A stretch of DNA of 34,066 nt from a virus (lineage: Duplodnaviria > Heunggongvirae > Uroviricota > Caudoviricetes). The notes beneath the pieces are model-generated. The model made no database searches, was not told where the DNA came from, and was given only the letters and a program-made list of their open reading frames with translations. Below, piece by piece: positions 1,494-30,101 of the stretch (its first letter is position 1; each line of letters begins with the position of its first letter). The DNA lies in IMG/VR virus record IMGVR_UViG_2541047909_000004, positions 1 to 34,066 of that record; one strand, written 5' to 3'. The position numbers and the translations under genes are program-made.

Positions 1494-3844
1494 TTAATAC
1501 TCTCCCCCATTTGCGCATCAGTTAATTCTTTATGCCAGAGACGAAGATTTCTCAAATGGCCGAATAGATGACGAGTTCCCGATGTGGCTTGACCTCCAAT
1601 TCGAATAAAGGTCCGTGTTTTTACGCCCGTCCACTCCGTTTTCATAGTTTTAGTAGCCTCACCGTTAGAAACTACTCGTTTAGTACCATCAGAATAAATA
1701 TTAAAACCACCAATGAATTTTCGAACATCAGTTCGACCAGCAAACACACTAGAAACGTAAGTACTTGTCGACGCTTTATAAGTTTGCATATAAAGCTGAC
1801 CGTAATATTTCTCAGTTGTGTTAAAAGCGTATGTAATTGACTCAATAGGTGGCACACCAGAAAAATCAAAAATACGCGGTGCTACATTAGGAGGAATATC
1901 GCCCCAATTTCTATTAACCTCGACAAGACACGTAAGCGGTCTATTATAGATATTATTTTCAGTTGGGATCGTCACCATATCACTGGAGCGGGTTGCGGGT
2001 GCAGTTGTCGTAATAACAAAAGATGAAGCACATCCGCCGTTTTCAAATTGTGGTGTTGCAAGGTAAATATAATCTCCCGCTTCAGTTATACCACCTTTTT
2101 TCGGCGCATACTGAATCATTGCGCCAATTAAGGTTTCACCTTCAACAGCTTCTATAGTTGCCTCATAGAAAATCCACCCTGTAACCGGATCTTTAGTTGC
2201 AGTAGCTGCTATTCTATTGGCTGCCCCGCCAGTTTTTTCTATTATCAGAGTTCCGAAAGTTAAATAAGCATCTCCTAAAAATGTATAAACCGACCCATCG
2301 TATTTTTCAAAACGCAAACGACAACGAAGACCATCAGGAGCTTTAACCCTGCATGAAACAGTGCAATACTTATTATCGCCACTAACATCAATCCCCCGGG
2401 ATGCACTGCATGTATGCAGACTAAGTGCAGATGATTGTCCTGTCATATTATCTTTTGTTCGCATTTTGGCATATGAAAAACCAAATTCATCAACACCATT
2501 ATTAGTTTTATCGATATTGCTGGTACTCGTCCATTCAGCGGGAGTATTGGATTTAACAAAATAGTTAGTGCGCTGTCCTTCAATCAATAAACCTTCTTTT
2601 TCAAATCGTGGCTCATCAATTTTAGCAACACTAAATACGCCTGATTTATTGATATATGTGGCAGTTGATGCGCGTTTAAACTTAACAACCTTGTCGCCAG
2701 GCATCGTTATTTCATCATCACCAATAACAATTTTTTTATATGACGGCGAAAAGCCCGTAATCATATCCAGTGAATCGTTAAACGGTATCCACACATCAGG
2801 CAGTGGCTGTAAGACATATTTATACGGCTCTGCTGCCTGACTTGCATACTCTCTGGCTGCGTCTTCACTTGCTTTAGCTGCTGTCTGGCTTGCTGCCGAT
2901 GCTTTCGCCGAGTTCGCCGCTGCAGTCTCGCTTGTCTTTGCATTGGTTTCACTGGTTTTTGCTGCTTTTTGACTGTTGGCTGATGCAGTGGCAGAAGCAG
3001 CCGCCGCGCTTGCAGAACCAGCTGCAGCACTCTCGCTTTGGGCTGCTGCATCCTGACTGTTTTTCGCCGCAGTTTCGCTGGCTTTGGCATTCGTTTCGCT
3101 GGTCTTCGCTGCCGTCTGGCTGTTAGCCGCAGCAGTTGCTGATCCAGCTGCTGAAGTCGCAGAACCGGCTGCCGCGCTCTCGCTTTGGGCTGCTGCAACC
3201 TGGCTGTTTTTTGCCGCAGTTTCACTGGCTTTGGCGTTCGTTTCGCTGGTTTTCGCTGCCGTCTGGCTGGACTTTGCGTTGGTTTCGCTCGTCTTTGCGG
3301 CTGTCTCGCTATTTTTCGCGTTGGTTTCTGATTTTTTGGCTGCTGTCGCGGAGTTTGCCGATGCAGTCTTTGAGGTCGCTGCCGCCTGTGCACTATTAGC
3401 TGCATTCGTTTCTGAGGTTTTCGCCGCGTTCTTCGATGATGCCGCTGCAGTTTCGGATTTCTTTGCCGCCGCTGCGCTCTGAGAGGCGGCTTCAGCGTTG
3501 CGTGCCGCTTCTTCCACCATTTCCTCAAAACGACGCAATGCCTCCGGCATGACATCATCTTCCGTCATGGCACCGAGAAAATCATTCAGCGTCCCCGGCT
3601 TAGAATCTTCATACACGGTGATGGTCCCGGCATGTGAAGGCGGAAAACCTTCAACCAGCAGGATAACGCTGTACTGGCCATACTCAACATCCATACTGTA
3701 ACGCCCGGCTTCATCCGGATTTTCTGAGGCCACCGTGTTTACCACAACCGTGGTGCTGTTACGTTTTGCTTTCAGCTGGATTGAGCAGTTCTGTACCGGT
3801 TTTCCTGTGCCGTCTTTCAGTACACCTGAAATCTTTACTGCCAT
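1490..3844 (-). CDS. stf: Side tail fibre protein (lambda Stf-like) with long Ala/Ser/Thr-rich repeat region
   Basis: 784 aa; N-terminus MAVKISGVLKDGTGKPVQNC... matches the lambda-type Stf N-terminal domain; central K-x-S-E-T-x-A heptad-like repeats. Confidence 0.85.
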   Translation of the reverse strand: MAVKISGVLKDGTGKPVQNCSIQLKAKRNSTTVVVNTVASENPDEAGRYSMDVEYGQYSVILLVEGFPPSHAGTITVYEDSKPGTLNDFLGAMTEDDVMPEALRRFEEMVEEAARNAEAASQSAAAAKKSETAAASSKNAAKTSETNAANSAQAAATSKTASANSATAAKKSETNAKNSETAAKTSETNAKSSQTAAKTSETNAKASETAAKNSQVAAAQSESAAAGSATSAAGSATAAANSQTAAKTSETNAKASETAAKNSQDAAAQSESAAAGSASAAAASATASANSQKAAKTSETNAKTSETAAANSAKASAASQTAAKASEDAAREYASQAAEPYKYVLQPLPDVWIPFNDSLDMITGFSPSYKKIVIGDDEITMPGDKVVKFKRASTATYINKSGVFSVAKIDEPRFEKEGLLIEGQRTNYFVKSNTPAEWTSTSNIDKTNNGVDEFGFSYAKMRTKDNMTGQSSALSLHTCSASRGIDVSGDNKYCTVSCRVKAPDGLRCRLRFEKYDGSVYTFLGDAYLTFGTLIIEKTGGAANRIAATATKDPVTGWIFYEATIEAVEGETLIGAMIQYAPKKGGITEAGDYIYLATPQFENGGCASSFVITTTAPATRSSDMVTIPTENNIYNRPLTCLVEVNRNWGDIPPNVAPRIFDFSGVPPIESITYAFNTTEKYYGQLYMQTYKASTSTYVSSVFAGRTDVRKFIGGFNIYSDGTKRVVSNGEATKTMKTEWTGVKTRTFIRIGGQATSGTRHLFGHLRNLRLWHKELTDAQMGESIK
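2880..3480. repeat. Tandem repeats inside stf: ~21-bp periodic units plus a ~150-bp near-perfect duplication
   Basis: DNA block around 3025-3120 is repeated at about 3175-3270; produces spurious ORFs in several frames on both strands. Confidence 0.8.
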
Positions 3845-4577: not shown

Positions 4578-7500
4578 TCAACGAATACTGATGCCGGAAG
4601 CGGCTTTTTTGGTCACAATCACCGTACAGTCGGTGATATTACCTGCCCACTGATTGCCTTTATGGAAAACCTTAAACTCCAGAGTGACGCTTCCCCTGCC
4701 ACTCGGCATATCAATAACCGCACTGTAGCTACCGGGAATGGCCCCTTTAGTTTCTCTGGATGCGATTAATACACCGTTTTTGCGAACTTCAAAACCATAA
4801 CCCGTGTATCTTGTACCTCCCGGGTTATTACCACTTCCCGGATCGCTATACGCTATTCCGTTAAAGATAATGGGCGGAATAATGATTTGACGGTCAAAGT
4901 TATGATCATCGCTGATGGTGACTGTAACCGTCCCGTTTGGTGTTTCCGTGTTACCCCACGTACCAGCCTGTTTCGGGAATGATTTGGATACAGCTTTAAC
5001 GAAGTCACCTCTGACCTGAGTCGCCTCCAGCATGCCCTTAATCGTACAGTTTTCATTTACCGTGACATTGTTGAGCGTCCCGGCGTTCGCATTCACTCTG
5101 CCACTGATATCCGCATTTTTAGCGGTCAGCTTTCCGTCTGATGTCAGGGAAAATGCCGGTGGATTTCCACCACTGGTAATGGTCGGGGCCGTCAGGCGCT
5201 TCAGGAACACGTCGTTCATAAATATCTGATTGCCCTGCGCCACAAACATCGGCGTTTCATTCCCGTTTGCCGGGTCAATAAACGCGATACGGTTAGCGGC
5301 AACCAGAAACTGGCTCAGCTTGCCTTCTTCCGTGTCCTCCATGCTGAGGCCAATACCCGCGACATAATGTTTGCCGTCTTTGGTCTGCTCAATTTTGACG
5401 CCCCACATGGCATTCCATTTATCGTTGGCGTCCTTCCACTCTTTCGAAAACTCCTCCAGTTTGCTGGCGTTATCCTCCGTCAGCTCGACTTTTTCCAGCA
5501 GCTCCTTGCCGAGATGGGATTCAGTTATCTGGCCTTTGAAAAAATCCAGGTAACCTTCCGCATCATCGCTCGCCCGACCGACAGCCTCCACGAATATCGA
5601 TTTGCCGACGGTGTTCACACTGCGAACGTAAAAATAATAATCATGGCCCGGTTTGATATTGATACTGGCGGCTATCCAGTACAGCGCCGTGCCAAGATAG
5701 CGGGCTGTGGTTTCAACCTGCCTGATATCCGCAATCCGCTTTTCCGAGAACCAGAACTCAAACTGTACAGTCGGATCATAAACCGCAAGATGCGGCGTGG
5801 CGGTTATCTGAAAATAGCCCGGCGTCAGCTCAATCCTCGACGGTGCTGCCGGTGCGGCAATCCGGAACGATACCGACGCCGGATCGCCCTGCTGCCCCCA
5901 CGCATTTACCGCCCGGACTGTCAGTCTGTAGTTCCCCAGCGCCAGTTGCGTGAAGCGGTATGTGGTTTCCGTCGTCCGGGCCGTGCTGACCAGCCGCTCA
6001 CTGCCGTCATCCGCTGTTACGGTCAGACGGAGCAGGAAGCTCACGCCCTTCACCACCTTCGGCGTGTCCCAGCGCGCCAGCACCTGATATTCCCCGCTGT
6101 CTGCGGTGACTTCGGCGGTCAGGTGCTGCACCGCTGGCGGCGTGACACCATTCACCGTGCCGCTCTGGTCGCCGTCAAAGTGCGCCCCGTTATCCACGAT
6201 GGCTTCTTTTTCCGGTACATGCTGCACGGCAGTGATGGCATACGTGCCGTCATCGTTCTCACGGATACTCACACAGCGGAACAGGCGCTGACGCAACGTC
6301 GGCAGCTTCAGCCCCCACACACTGTATTCTGCAACGCCGTCAGGAACCCGGTTCACTTTCACCTTAAGTCCGTCGGTGACGGACTGAACCTCCACGCTGA
6401 CCGGATTACCACTTCCGTCAACCAGGCTTATCAGCGTGGTACCGGAGGATGGCAGCGTGATTTCACGGTCGAGCGTCAGCGTCCGGGTCTGGCTGTTCAC
6501 CGCCAGCACGCGACCACCGGTGCTGATACCGGCATAGTCATCATCGCAGATTTCAATGACATCGCCCGGTACATGGCGAAGCCCTTCAGCACCCACGCTG
6601 AAATCCACGGTCTGCGTCTCCAGCAGTTCAGTTTTAATCAGCCACAGCCCGGCGCGGTGTGCCTGCCCCCGGCTGGTACAGCCAAAAGCATCCATCTTCG
6701 TGACGCTACGACCGTAACGGGCAATGGCCTGCGTGTCCTCCACAAGCTCTGTCGCCGTCTCCCAGCCGTTATTCGGGTCAATCCAGTTCACCTCAACGGC
6801 ATTATGGCGGTCCTTCAGGGCGCTGAAGCTGTAGCGGAACGGCGCACCATCATCCGGCATCACCACATTACTGCGGTTATAGGTCCACACCTTATCCGAC
6901 GGTCGGTCCTGCACGAACGTCAGCGTCTGCCCGTTCCATACCGGCATACAGCGCATCGCCGAGCAGAAATCACTGAGCACATCCCACGCCTTGCGCTGTG
7001 TGGTCAGGTACGCATTACAGGTGATGCGCGGCTCCGTGCCGCCAAAACCGTCCGGCACCGACTGGTCGCAGTAGTGGCCGATGACATACAGCGCCCATTT
7101 GTCCACATCCGCCGCACCAAGACGTTTCCCCATGCCGTAGCGCGGATGGGTCAGCATATCCCACAGACACCAGGCCATGTTGTTGCTGTATGCTGGCTTA
7201 AACGTTCCGTCCCAGATACCGCTGTATTGCCGCGTCTGCGGGTTATAGTTCGACGGCACCTGCAGAATACGCCCGCGCAGATGATAATTACGGCTCACCT
7301 GCTGGCTGCCGAACTGCTCCGAGTCCACCTGCACGCCGACCAGTGCCGTGTTCGGGTAGCACTGTTTCACATCGATGATTTCGGTGTATGACGACCAGAG
7401 CGTTTTGTTCTGCAGCTGGTCTGTGGTGCTGTCCGGCGTCATCCTGCGCATCCGTATATTGAACGGGCGCGGCGGCAGGTTACCCACCACCACCGAGGCC

Positions 7501-26555: not shown

Positions 26556-26640
26556 ACCTTTCTCCTCTGAAATTCAGAGGGATGATGCTACTTAAAATAG
26601 CAGAATGCAACTACTTAAAATAGAAATGACTAGCGTATGT
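26556..26640. promoter_or_regulatory. Immunity-region operator/promoter segment between divergent cro-like and cI-like genes
   Basis: Perfect-arm palindrome CCTCTGAA-A-TTCAGAGG at 26564-26580 and two direct copies of CTACTTAAAATAG at 26588-26600 and 26611-26623. Confidence 0.5.
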
Positions 26641-27366
26641 GATGCGAGTAACCTTCTACCTATGGTAGAAGAACAGAAGTATCCAGATTTCGCCAAGAGA
26701 CTAAACGAGCTAATGACAAACAAGGGAATTTCTGTCACCCAACTCAAAAGTCTTGTGGGCGTTACATATGAAATGGCGCGGCGATACACAATCGGCGCTG
26801 CGAAGCCTCGTGCCTCTGTCATGAATAAACTTGCATTGGCTCTGGGGGTATCAGCTTCATATTTAGAATATGGTGTTGGCGAGAGAGAAGGATGTAAGGA
26901 AATGGCAAGCATCCCCAATCCAACAAAACCCGATGTATACAGGATAGAAGTTTTGGATCTTAGCGTTAGCGCAGGACCTGGAACCTATATGCTTTCAGAC
27001 TATGTTGATGTGCTCTACGCCATTGAGTTCACAACAGAGCATGCCCGTTCTCTTTTCGGTAATCGTTCTCAAGATGATATTAAAGTTATGACTGTAAATG
27101 GCGACAGCATGTCCCCTACTCTAGTTTCCGGAGATCGACTGTTTGTCGACATTTCTGTTCGCAACTTCCAAACTGATGGTGTTTACTCTTTCGTTTATGG
27201 TAAGACGTTCCACGTTAAACGTCTACAAATGCAAGGCAACAAACTCGCCGTTCTTTCGGATAATCCAGCCTATGAGAAATGGTACATTGATGAGAAGTCC
27301 CAAGATCAACTTTATGTTATGGGCAAAGCATTGATACACGAATCAATTAAATACAACCGGCTTTAG
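26605..27366 (+). CDS. cI: CI-like prophage repressor (HTH plus S24 LexA-like peptidase domain)
   Basis: C-terminal ...VNGDSMSPTLVSGDRLFVD...FHVKRLQ... Ser/Lys autocleavage module; N-terminal HTH; start uncertain (26605, 26629 or 26662), possibly leaderless. Confidence 0.8.
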   Translation: MQLLKIEMTSVCDASNLLPMVEEQKYPDFAKRLNELMTNKGISVTQLKSLVGVTYEMARRYTIGAAKPRASVMNKLALALGVSASYLEYGVGEREGCKEMASIPNPTKPDVYRIEVLDLSVSAGPGTYMLSDYVDVLYAIEFTTEHARSLFGNRSQDDIKVMTVNGDSMSPTLVSGDRLFVDISVRNFQTDGVYSFVYGKTFHVKRLQMQGNKLAVLSDNPAYEKWYIDEKSQDQLYVMGKALIHESIKYNRL

Positions 27367-27536: not shown

Positions 27537-28613
27537 ATGACAAAATCAATTTGTTTTTTTAATCATAAAGGTGGGGTAAGTAAAACCACAACAACCTTCA
27601 ATCTTGGATGGGCACTTGCGGATGAAGGCAAGAAAGTATTGATGGTTGACCTTGATTCGCAATGTAATCTAACAGGAATGGTTCTTGGCTATGAAAAGAT
27701 TGATGAGGGTTTAGATTCTTTTTATTCTAGCAGAGATAACTTAACTCTTGGACCTATTGTAGAATATTTGATTAATGGCGGACAACCTGAAGCATACCTT
27801 GAAAAAGAAACGGGAAAATTACACCCTACACTGCATGAAAACCTTCTGCTTCTTCCCGGACATTTAGATGTTTCGGACTTAGATTCACAGATAAGTGTTT
27901 CTCTAAAAATTGCTGCTGGTATTCCTGCTACAAGAAATATACCAGGGAACCTGCCAAAAATATTACAGCTAATCGCCATGAAGAATAATATTGATTACAT
28001 TCTTTATGATCTCAGCCCTAATGTTGGAGGTTTAAATGAAGTAGTTCTCATGTCAAGTGACTATTTTATCGTACCTGTAGCTCCAGACTTTTTTTGCTGG
28101 CAAGCAATTCGCTCTCTCTCAAAAAATATACCTCGCTGGCACAAAGAATTAGCATTATTTAAAGAAAATAATGATGGTAACTCTTCACAATCAATTAAAA
28201 ATGCACCGCAGTTTCTAGGTATGATTCAGCAGAGATACAGGCCGCGTAAAGGAGCACCTGTAAAATCTTTCGAAAAATGGATGGCAGCTATCCGTGATGC
28301 TGTTGATTCGATCTTAGTGCCAAATCTAGAAAAAATTACCTGCATAATTCCACGAGATAAAGTGCAACATGCAATTAACAAAACAACAGTCAGTGGAGAT
28401 TTATCAGCCTATGATCTTGCGCATATTTCCGATTTCAACTCATTAATCGCAATAAGCCAACAACTAGCGACACCTGTTTTCTCCATCAGTGATCAGCAAA
28501 TTCGCGATTCAGGGCAATTTGGGCATGCCTTAAATACAATGAAATCAAGCAGAGACGCCTTTAACGAACAATTTAAAGGGCTGGCTCAACGAGTTCTAGA
28601 ACTTACAAAGTAA
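27537..28613 (+). CDS. ParA/MinD-family ATPase (358 aa, deviant Walker A), low-GC moron in the rexAB-equivalent position
   Basis: FFNHKGGVSKTTTTFNLGWALADEGKKVLMVDLDSQCNLT Walker A; SD AAGGATAG; AT-rich gene and flanks; immediately downstream of cI on the same strand. Confidence 0.8.
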   Translation: MTKSICFFNHKGGVSKTTTTFNLGWALADEGKKVLMVDLDSQCNLTGMVLGYEKIDEGLDSFYSSRDNLTLGPIVEYLINGGQPEAYLEKETGKLHPTLHENLLLLPGHLDVSDLDSQISVSLKIAAGIPATRNIPGNLPKILQLIAMKNNIDYILYDLSPNVGGLNEVVLMSSDYFIVPVAPDFFCWQAIRSLSKNIPRWHKELALFKENNDGNSSQSIKNAPQFLGMIQQRYRPRKGAPVKSFEKWMAAIRDAVDSILVPNLEKITCIIPRDKVQHAINKTTVSGDLSAYDLAHISDFNSLIAISQQLATPVFSISDQQIRDSGQFGHALNTMKSSRDAFNEQFKGLAQRVLELTK

Positions 28614-28620
28614 TGCATGT

Positions 28621-28648
28621 GCCCGGCCGCATAACCGGGCTTTACTCT
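28621..28648 (+). terminator. Rho-independent terminator after ParA-like gene
   Basis: GCCCGG-CCGCATAA-CCGGGC followed by TTTACTCTTCTTTC. Confidence 0.6.
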
Positions 28649-28800: not shown

Positions 28801-28848
28801 ACAACAAATATCTACTTTTTGTTGTTGATTTTTGCTACTTTAAGTAGC
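28801..28848. promoter_or_regulatory. Candidate left operator/promoter region (inverted repeats sharing the CTACTT half-site)
   Basis: ACAACAAA...TTTGTTGT inverted repeat at 28801-28825 and GCTACTT-TA-AGTAGC at 28834-28848, followed by CATAAT. Confidence 0.4.
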
Positions 28849-29003
28849 AACATAATGTAAGCTATCACGGACAGGCAGGACGCCCACGAAGTAGCCGCCG
28901 GTGGCGTATGAATGACCGGATGATTCGTTAGCAACAAAAAAGCGCCCTACAGGACGCTTAGCTCTTTAACAATCTTAGTATCCCCGTAACAAAAGAGGGT
29001 TCT

Positions 29004-29297
29004 ATGGTCATATTCTGTGCTTACGTTCATCCTAATGGATTTTTTATCAGCACCAACCAACAAGACGAATTCTGGATTCTACTTAGTAAGCAGGTCGGAT
29101 GGGGACGATTCTGTCTAATCCGACCAGAATCAGAATTTACAGAGAATGGAGGGCTTTTTGAATTACGTGAAATACGTCCGGCAGATGGTCAAGCCCCTGA
29201 CCAAGTAATCGAATCGTCAGCTGTTTTATGGCGTCGGCAGGAAGCGTTCGAAGCTGAGAGAGTAATTTCTTCTTATCTTCAGTCGTGGCAGAAGTAG
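29004..29297 (+). CDS. Hypothetical protein (97 aa), first ORF downstream of candidate pL
   Basis: ATG preceded by AAGAGGG; overlaps the convergent 167-aa ORF by 161 bp, so only one may be fully real. Confidence 0.4.
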   Translation: MVIFCAYVHPNGFFISTNQQDEFWILLSKQVGWGRFCLIRPESEFTENGGLFELREIRPADGQAPDQVIESSAVLWRRQEAFEAERVISSYLQSWQK

Positions 29298-29640
29298 AAC
29301 TATTGATGATACGTTCAAGTTCACAGAGAGTCTCATCATGCAATCTTATTGTCATAATCCCAAGAATAGCTTTAAGACCTCCATCATCACGAATGAAATC
29401 AATTCCATCTTTAGTAATTCTTAATTCAGGAATATTTATATTTATGCCATCCAAGTAATAATCAAGAGCATTCTTAATCAAGCCATGTTCTTCGAGATAA
29501 ATTAAGTTCGAAATTAGGACATTATCATCTCCAAATGCGTCACGAACAGACTGCAACGCATCATCAGAAATTTCATAAGGATGAGCATCATACAGTATTT
29601 GTAACAACTGCCTTTGTGCACTTCTATCAAATTTGTCCAT
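29137..29640 (-). CDS. Hypothetical protein (167 aa), AT-rich, opposite strand to the early operon
   Basis: Long ORF with protein-like composition (MDKFDRSAQRQLLQILYDAHPYEISDD...); weak SD; no recognisable motif. Confidence 0.5.
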   Translation of the reverse strand: MDKFDRSAQRQLLQILYDAHPYEISDDALQSVRDAFGDDNVLISNLIYLEEHGLIKNALDYYLDGININIPELRITKDGIDFIRDDGGLKAILGIMTIRLHDETLCELERIINSSTSATTEDKKKLLSQLRTLPADAIKQLTIRLLGQGLDHLPDVFHVIQKALHSL

Positions 29641-29699
29641 CTTAAATAATCACCATGTTATTGGGGGTATCAAGATTAACCGAATCCTTGTTGTTGGGG

Positions 29700-30070
29700 A
29701 ATAACCAGGTCCACCTCGCCTGATGTGGCTAAAAGCAGGCACATAACAGCTAAGTATTTTCAACCAGAGAGAATCCTTAGCGTTGTGGTGAATGCGGCTC
29801 AGCGCACGCGGGTTAAGGTTGAGGCTGACAGTCGACCTTCTGTGGATACCCACCCGCCTGGTGTGCAACCTTCGCCAGGCACCGGGAGGCACCCGGCACC
29901 ACAACAGCCACTGCTTTGGCGGTACCAGTTTGTACACTTGCTTCCGGCTGGCACCGCTCTTTTTACAAAACAGAGAAGAGCATCACCGGACGACGGGCTC
30001 ATAACCCAATCCATCCGGGCGGCTGCCACCGCAGGTGTTCTTCTCTGTTTTGTGGAGAAACCAACCGACC
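29700..30070. other. GC-rich, ORF-poor island with extensive dyad symmetry (candidate structured ncRNA or cis element)
   Basis: 15-bp perfect long-range inverted repeat ACAAAACAGAGAAGA (29965-29979) / TCTTCTCTGTTTTGT (30039-30053); several local GC hairpins; short ORFs in all six frames. Confidence 0.4.
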
Positions 30071-30101
30071 TTGCAGGGTCGATATGATGAGGAGCAGCAA
30101 A

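Follow-up and report, generated by a model that had tools for sequence, protein, structure and literature searches.

A convergent phage gene pair with a conserved antisense dual-coding overlap in a lambdoid prophage of Escherichia coli

Two convergent open reading frames (ORFs) in a lambdoid prophage of Escherichia coli are both genuine protein genes, and comparison across related loci identifies the 161 bp that they share as dual-coding. The prophage makes up IMG/VR virus record IMGVR_UViG_2541047909_000004, whose 34,066 nucleotides are the stretch analysed here (the window). It is of the SfV/SfIV/CPS-53 type, lies beside a tRNA-Arg gene and carries an intD-type integrase. The plus-strand ORF (the small gene, 97 aa) and the minus-strand ORF (the large gene, 167 aa) meet tail-to-tail. 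The first-pass annotation of this DNA had described such a pair with an overlap of about 160 bp, and its coordinates and sizes are exact (29004-29297, plus; 29137-29640, minus; 161 bp). It had also raised the possibility that one of the two ORFs is spurious. We reject this, since each ORF is conserved and shows purifying selection, and there is dual-coding constraint in the overlap. We favor, as probable, the view that the pair is a conserved two-gene phage accessory cassette, in which two real convergent protein genes with about 160 nt of dual coding alternate between lysogenic and lytic expression. The pair is a new, unannotated small-protein family that is interlocked with an uncharacterised phage family.

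One alternative is that the small ORF is a non-coding shadow, and that the conserved thing is the 3' end of the large gene and its 3' untranslated region acting as RNA. Long antiparallel ORFs are common and are generally without protein-level selection (bioRxiv 10.1101/724807). In keeping with a shadow, RefSeq/PGAP and four phage records annotate the large gene only, and the single small-protein sequence has no family match. Against it stands the comparative evidence. The tblastn and hidden Markov model (HMM) searches find a homologous small frame at 19 distinct loci, where it stays open for 96-118 codons; among them are loci of four isolated phages and of the AT-rich Providencia and Xenorhabdus. 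In these loci it is always convergent with the large gene and overlaps it by 152-218 nt. The recurrence of a homologous open antisense frame in 19 loci, where the large protein is only 29-60% identical, places the arrangement far beyond chance. The homology reaches beyond the overlap, with the common motif M.IF.A..HPNGFF......FW..LS..GWG+F. The ATG is at a conserved position, and a purine-rich Shine-Dalgarno-like motif precedes it in 7/7 loci examined; in the window this motif is AAGAGGG, which agrees with the good Shine-Dalgarno sequence reported for the 97-aa ORF at first pass.

The part of the small gene outside the overlap also diverges as a coding sequence does, which a shadow would not. 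Over these 44 codons the proportion of synonymous differences (pS) is 0.54-1.07 (at least 0.72 in all but one pair) versus a proportion of nonsynonymous differences (pN) of 0.11-0.38; saturation is largely reached at the synonymous sites. The third codon position differs most often and the second least (3 > 1 > 2); between loci L015 and L008, for example, there are 6 at the first, 5 at the second and 20 at the third position. The AlphaFold2 model of the small protein, built from a 35-sequence alignment, is confident (predicted local distance difference test score, pLDDT, 84.5) and has five beta strands (residues 3-58) followed by a C-terminal helix (78-96). Given these observations and the overlap constraint described below, we consider the shadow explanation very improbable. 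The small ORF is a genuine conserved gene under purifying selection, as judged from its pattern of divergence.

The small family has been largely overlooked. Our profile search gathered 43 small proteins, nearly all of them unnamed. Run against 1.84 billion representative proteins, the profile picks out 218 clusters (50% identity). Every record of the phage collection in which the small protein is present also holds the large protein. The small gene is unannotated in the RefSeq/PGAP E. coli chromosome and also in the GenBank records of Edwardsiella phage GF-2, Pseudomonas phage YMC/01/01/P52, Escherichia phage PhiR49_2 and Acinetobacter phage AbIPP1. Gene callers miss such antisense ORFs because long overlaps are disallowed, and this looks like a systematic blindness to long antisense overlaps. 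A Pfam scan of all small-family members gave no match. Some members are longer (180-280 aa) and were considered as possible domain fusions, and none of them has a Pfam domain; thus they are probably over-extended ORF calls. The fold search of the small protein against BFVD returned no match at E <= 0.001.

The large ORF is likewise a genuine gene under purifying selection, and the distribution and divergence of its relatives define a phage family of Gamma- and Betaproteobacteria. Its product is WP_000357060.1 in RefSeq, a "hypothetical protein", and residues 1-165 align with positions 1-164/165 of the PHROG 3983 profile at E 2.6e-59. The first-pass annotation had advised homology searches for each ORF separately, and relatives were found for each, 43 for the small protein as given above and 30 for the large. 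The latter extend down to 35% identity and are 153-173 aa long. A scan of one genome per species located the large gene at 23 loci in Enterobacterales, Xanthomonadales, Burkholderiales, Moraxella and Snodgrassella, and 14 isolated-phage records also carry it. Outside the overlap its pS is 0.69-0.99 and its pN 0.29-0.55. Neither window protein has a significant match in Pfam or NCBIfam, and a Pfam scan of all large-family members gave only weak YjcQ, DUF2513 and DUF1542 matches. A profile search of both families against PDB sequences found no meaningful match, and nothing relevant was found in the literature on DUF2513 and WP_000357060.

The evidence for dual coding comes from comparing 11 loci that carry the pair with 12 solo loci, which have the large gene and no small ORF. 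In the antisense phase of the pair, the antisense codon of the small-gene frame begins at position 2 of the large-gene sense codon, and the third codon position of the large gene is the second position of the small gene. Where a large-protein residue is identical in the pair loci, the codon is also identical at a frequency of 0.36 outside the overlap and 0.63 inside it. The corresponding values for the solo loci are 0.35 outside and 0.31 in the overlap region. A per-column Mann-Whitney test for higher values in the overlap than outside gives p = 1.5e-7 for the pair loci and p = 0.83 for the solo loci. Third-position identity of the large gene is flat at 0.25-0.41 across codons 1-120, in the pair and solo sets alike, and rises to 0.51-0.74 across codons 121-160 in the pair loci only. 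The large-gene codons that face the invariant V74-L75-W76 of the small protein are (G/A)CC-A(T/C)A in 11/11 pair loci, including the rare isoleucine codon ATA. The codon next to them is AAA in 9/11 pair loci, and the solo loci vary freely there. A constraint on large-gene third positions, which are small-gene second positions, that appears only where the small ORF exists also argues against a shadow. By these comparisons the overlap is constrained in both frames, i.e., it is dual-coding, and it is a well-supported and rare antisense case.

The two genes are exchangeable cargo in a conserved phage backbone, since the backbone homology is interrupted across both of them. Homology to phages SfV and vB_EcoS-569R4 ends at about 28975 (569R4 matches the window at 28864-28975) and restarts at 29657 in 569R4 or at 29711 in SfV. 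The G+C content of the large gene is 0.38 versus 0.49 for the window, and the cargo is present at >=99% identity in 76/5426 complete E. coli genomes. Its placement varies between genomes. In Mangrovibacter it lies between cI and yfdP, in Salmonella within an early operon with cox- and recE-type genes, at loci L030 and L032 directly after a cro-like gene, at L031 after replication genes, and in PhiR49_2 between lysis and terminase genes. In GF-2 the large gene lies after or beside an Arc/Mnt-like regulator, and in AbIPP1 after cI; in both phages it is thus grouped with lysogeny genes. At most loci, including those of P52 and PhiR49_2, the small gene follows the direction of the flanking unidirectional array, typically a lytic operon, in which no gene but the large one is on the opposite strand. 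The GF-2 cassette sits at a boundary between transcription units, where this pattern fits only partly. Taken together, its positions in these genomes show a cassette that is mobile among the temperate phages of Gamma- and Betaproteobacteria.

In the window, the plus-strand order is a cI-like repressor gene (helix-turn-helix and S24 peptidase domains), a ParA-family ATPase gene, a terminator, the ORF pair, a spacer and yfdP. The likely control elements of the pair lie on both sides of it (Table 1). At 28833-28849 there is a palindrome of 17 bp, TGCTACTTTAAGTAGCA. It matches two operators in the interval that separates the cI-like gene from the cro-like one, namely TGCTACTTAAAATAGCA at 26586-26602 and a second copy at 26609-26625. 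The whole 46-nt stretch 28808-28853 is an inverted copy of 26582-26627 (78% complementary). Since this stretch mirrors the cI/cro operator block, we assign it as the left operator (oL) with a plus-directed early-left promoter (pL) about 150 nt upstream of the small ORF. This places the pair downstream of a candidate pL, as noted at first pass. A simple promoter scan found no strong sigma-70 consensus at oL, so pL stays a candidate that is defined by operator symmetry, and its -35 and -10 boxes are not firm. The small gene is thus the first ORF past oL/pL on the early-left transcript, and the large gene opposes that direction. The first-pass view that the 167-aa gene is oriented against early-operon transcription is correct here and holds in most related loci. 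As side observations, the prophage operators are 17-bp palindromes of the form TGCTACTTWAARTAGCA (regions 26556-26661 and 28808-28853); two copies lie in the interval from the cI-like to the cro-like gene, and oL has at least one. The gene on the cro side is a member of the YdaS_toxin (PF15943) family.

On the minus strand, a sigma-70-like promoter candidate precedes the large gene, and a strong intrinsic terminator lies beyond the start of the small gene. Read on the plus strand, the terminator hairpin is weaker and has no U-run. Because of its position, the antisense reach of the large-gene mRNA would take in all of the small gene, ribosome-binding site included, and the mRNA is predicted to end just short of pL. 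The promoter-like site is only 6 nt from the ATG, and a leaderless mRNA was considered for the large gene; this was dropped, since ordinary motifs of the Shine-Dalgarno-like kind are present at other loci. Upstream of the large gene, the sequence is conserved in the Salmonella and Mangrovibacter loci. The promoter candidate is flanked by two direct repeats, CCCCAAYAACA, whose only exact matches in the window are these two, with a one-mismatch copy at 29778-29788. In Salmonella (L027) and Xenorhabdus (L019), too, the large gene is preceded by similar repeats. The repeats may be the binding site of a regulator.

The geometry suggests reciprocal lysogenic and lytic expression with antisense interference. 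In a lysogen the lytic promoter would be repressed, and only the large acidic winged-helix protein would be made, from a transcript that runs antisense across the entire small gene up to the minus-strand terminator. When pL fires, upon induction or infection, the small gene would be transcribed, and convergent transcription together with RNA duplex formation would shut down the large gene. Through this reciprocal use of promoters, the two products would be made in mutually exclusive phases. The dual coding would keep both genes inseparable by recombination. The first-pass annotation had offered an antisense-regulated pair as its second option. The interlocked pair is genuine; its regulation we infer from the convergent units and from the terminator past the small-gene start.

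A serious rival is that both genes are real and their functions unrelated. The overlap would then be plain compaction or overprinting, in which the tail of the small gene grew into the 3' end of its neighbor, with no coupling and no meaningful antisense regulation. Phage genomes are under size pressure, which counts for this rival. The C-terminal end of the small protein is variable, as its range of 96-118 aa and the overlaps of 152-218 nt show. A number of further observations weigh against functional coupling or against parts of the scheme above, and the first of them are shared with the compaction rival. Each gene is found without the other. The large gene is alone at 12 loci, so the pair is not obligatory; in Kluyvera (L005) the large gene is kept and the small ORF is a 41-codon remnant (5017-5139); and L032 has an intact small gene (5001-5357, plus) with only a large-gene remnant of aa 114-150 (5182-5292, minus). 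The last case is at the same time a point against the shadow, as the small gene there is intact after the loss of most of the large gene. Within the overlap the large-gene frame dominates the substitution pattern, and the small-protein tail is therefore the less constrained partner. Rare frameshifts are also seen in the small gene: in the close relatives P0033 and P0035 one leaves 64 aa, with the beta domain kept and the helix gone, and in L023 (~6596-6627) one disrupts the ORF near codon 10. The small gene of AbIPP1 does not share the direction of its neighbors. The terminator and the region upstream of the large-gene promoter-like site belong to the phage backbone outside the cassette, so full antisense coverage is not a conserved property of the pair. 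For the proteins themselves, the winged-helix domain of the large protein has an isoelectric point (pI) of 4.2, which makes DNA binding doubtful. Against PADLOC-DB 2.0.0 the large protein has nothing significant (best CARF_m5, E 0.013), and the small protein has no match.

Compaction does not easily account for all of the data, and we consider it possible but rather unlikely. The overlap is kept in 19 loci of Enterobacterales, Pseudomonas, Acinetobacter, Xanthomonadales and Burkholderiales despite differing neighbors and insertion sites. Two features of the small protein, its invariant V-L-W and its confidently predicted helix, have their codons within the overlap. In addition, convergent transcription over about 500 nt would hardly be without effect on expression.

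The large protein has an N-terminal winged-helix fold, as MarR-type proteins have, and a conserved helical C-terminal half. It differs from YjcQ (PF09639) and DUF2513 (PF10711) in that it matches neither Pfam family. Its C-terminal half has no counterpart in YjcQ, DUF2513 or MarR-type proteins, and its winged-helix domain is strongly acidic, unlike theirs. We tentatively propose that the large protein is a lysogen-phase accessory factor, for example in exclusion or defence, and that the small protein is its lytic-phase counterpart or antagonist. A more specific version, which we regard as unlikely, sees in the cassette a gene for prophage defence or exclusion that is interlocked with the gene for its antidote. 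The large protein would act in the lysogen on incoming phages or other targets, and the small protein, made from lytic transcripts only, would neutralise it and so spare the phage's own lytic growth. If this were true, recombination could not part defence from self-immunity, since the two C-termini are dual-coded, and phages with the small gene only, such as that of L032, would have escaped by means of the antidote that they carry.

A toxin-antitoxin or abortive-infection pair was also considered, with the small beta-rich protein as toxin and the winged-helix protein as antitoxin or regulator, or the reverse. The mobile two-gene cassette in prophage accessory slots and the winged-helix fold would suit such a pair, and the beta sheet and C-terminal helix of the small protein are superficially CcdB/MazF-like. 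However, no CcdB/MazF/Kid-related toxin fold was found in the pair, there are no PADLOC, Pfam or NCBIfam matches, and the genes are convergent instead of forming a co-directional operon. Both solo forms exist, and a toxin without its antitoxin should not be tolerated; a strict dependency is therefore unlikely. On balance, we regard a toxin-antitoxin pair as quite improbable.

In lambda cII/OOP RNA, P22 sar and P1 c4, a convergent transcript covers the 3' end of a regulatory-region gene, and the lysogeny side opposes the lytic side. The pair described here resembles these in having convergent transcripts that overlap a 3' gene end. It differs from them in that their antisense partner is a short non-coding RNA, whereas here there are two conserved proteins with both frames constrained. 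A closer comparison is Pseudomonas phage Fc02, a beetrevirus with antisense-overlapping genes in its lysis-lysogeny region, olg1/olg2 versus gene 10 (PMC9936078). There, the lysogenic transcript carries olg1, and gene 10 comes after ner in the early lytic operon; superinfection exclusion is conferred by both (PMC9936078). Both systems have antisense protein genes in a temperate phage, and the lytic-side gene follows a cro/ner-type gene, as the small gene does in L030 and L032. The overlap in Fc02 is essentially complete and is combined with a same-strand overlap, whereas ours is 3'-3' and about 160 nt. Exclusion was established by experiment in Fc02, whereas our pair is known from its sequence. 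A tblastn search of both proteins against 50,697 phage records gave no beetrevirus match, which is an indirect comparison as the proteins were not aligned to the Fc02 sequences directly. We infer a possible exclusion role for the large gene solely by analogy with Fc02.

The small gene is also like asa, ano and other antisense ORFs of E. coli O157:H7, in being an unannotated ORF antisense to an annotated gene (PMC6294744, PMC5960689, PMC9927249). Those ORFs are reported to be embedded in the annotated gene and to be supported mainly by RNA sequencing (RNA-seq) and ribosome profiling (Ribo-seq). The profile of our pair is the opposite: its support is comparative and deep, from several orders of bacteria, a domain of the small gene lies outside the overlap, and matched loci without the second gene serve as controls. 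By analogy, BstA/aba (PMC8585504) is similar: it too is an accessory locus that a prophage carries close to its repressor, and its second function lies physically inside the first gene and cannot be separated from it. It is different in that aba is an element of DNA, whereas our small gene encodes a protein; the two loci have no sequence similarity, and defence by our large protein is speculative.

Table 1 Features of the gene pair and its surroundings (window coordinates unless a locus is named)
Feature	Position	Strand	Remarks
Small gene	29004-29297	+	97 aa, ATG start; from ORF listing
Large gene	29137-29640	-	167 aa, ATG start; WP_000357060.1, PHROG 3983
Dual-coding overlap	29137-29297	both	161 bp; small-gene codons 45-97, large-gene codons ~115-167 plus stop
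Shine-Dalgarno-like AAGAGGG of small gene	28993-28999	+	4 nt before ATG
Exchangeable cargo, both genes	28976-29656		set in conserved phage backbone
oL region and candidate pL	28808-28853	+	pL pointing +; operator palindrome 28833-28849; operator symmetry
Intrinsic terminator for minus-strand transcripts	28930-28959	-	8-bp stem, loop UGUA, then UUUUUUGUUG
Sigma-70-like promoter candidate of large gene	29646-29673	-	TTGATA, 16 nt, GATTAT; ends 6 nt before ATG
Two direct repeats CCCCAAYAACA	29656-29666, 29689-29699	-	33 nt apart; flank large-gene promoter candidate
Intrinsic terminator after ParA-family gene	28621-28640		
Small gene at phage locus L033	3380-3649	-	
Small gene at phage locus L034	3281-3655	-	
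Small gene at phage locus L035	3353-3640	-	
Small gene at phage locus L036	3329-3574	-	

Several features of the neighborhood are of separate interest. The same pL-proximal slot holds different cargo in SfV and vB_EcoS-569R4, and this is again a convergent, overlapping pair of plus and minus ORFs. In SfV (L002) the ORFs are at 3086-3382 (plus) and 3300-3545 (minus), with an 83 nt overlap, and belong to PHROG 3195 and 3311. In 569R4 (L003) they are at 3137-3358 (plus) and 3330-3764 (minus), with a 29 nt overlap, and belong to PHROG 1744 and 5286. The slot may be specialised for two-gene convergent cassettes. On the other side of the cassette, a G+C-rich conserved spacer (29700-30100) without an annotated gene is followed by yfdP, yfdQ (DUF2303), yfdR, a phage-protein gene, yfdT and int. 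Some 2,900 E. coli genomes have matches to the segment 28600-30550, which contains the spacer, and nearly all of these matches fall outside the cassette. An Rfam scan of the window found no family at the gathering threshold; at 29784-29903 (plus) in the spacer there is a sub-threshold match to the sRNA STnc100 (35.6 bits versus a gathering threshold of 47, E 1.1e-5). An inverted repeat with 25-nt arms lies at 29965-30053, just upstream of yfdP. The spacer may be an RNA element of the early-left transcript.

The ParA-family P-loop ATPase (27537-28613, plus; 358 aa) is encoded directly after the cI-like repressor, where lambda has rexAB. Its match to partition ATPases is confined to the N-terminal Walker region, and it has weak PADLOC matches to the candidate system PDC-M28B (E 5.7e-9). 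Its gene may be a lysogen-expressed accessory or defence gene. We considered this neighbor as a part of the module and rejected it: it is absent from the Mangrovibacter locus, and the P-loop ATPase family is not among the called neighbors in Salmonella, L030, L031 and L032.

Long antisense overlaps between protein genes of bacteria or phages tend to be written off as artefacts of annotation, and there is dispute over the few cases that have been claimed. The pair described here is an unusually clean comparative case, with a second gene that extends beyond the overlap, a distribution over several bacterial orders, and natural control loci that have neither the second gene nor the constraint. 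The small-protein family has been mostly missed by annotation pipelines, with only 218 clusters called among the 1.84 billion representatives. The geometry of the cassette suggests a hard-wired lysogenic/lytic toggle that is placed in the regulatory and accessory slots of prophages. If the functional coupling is true, it would mean that phages use dual coding to hold cooperating functions together.

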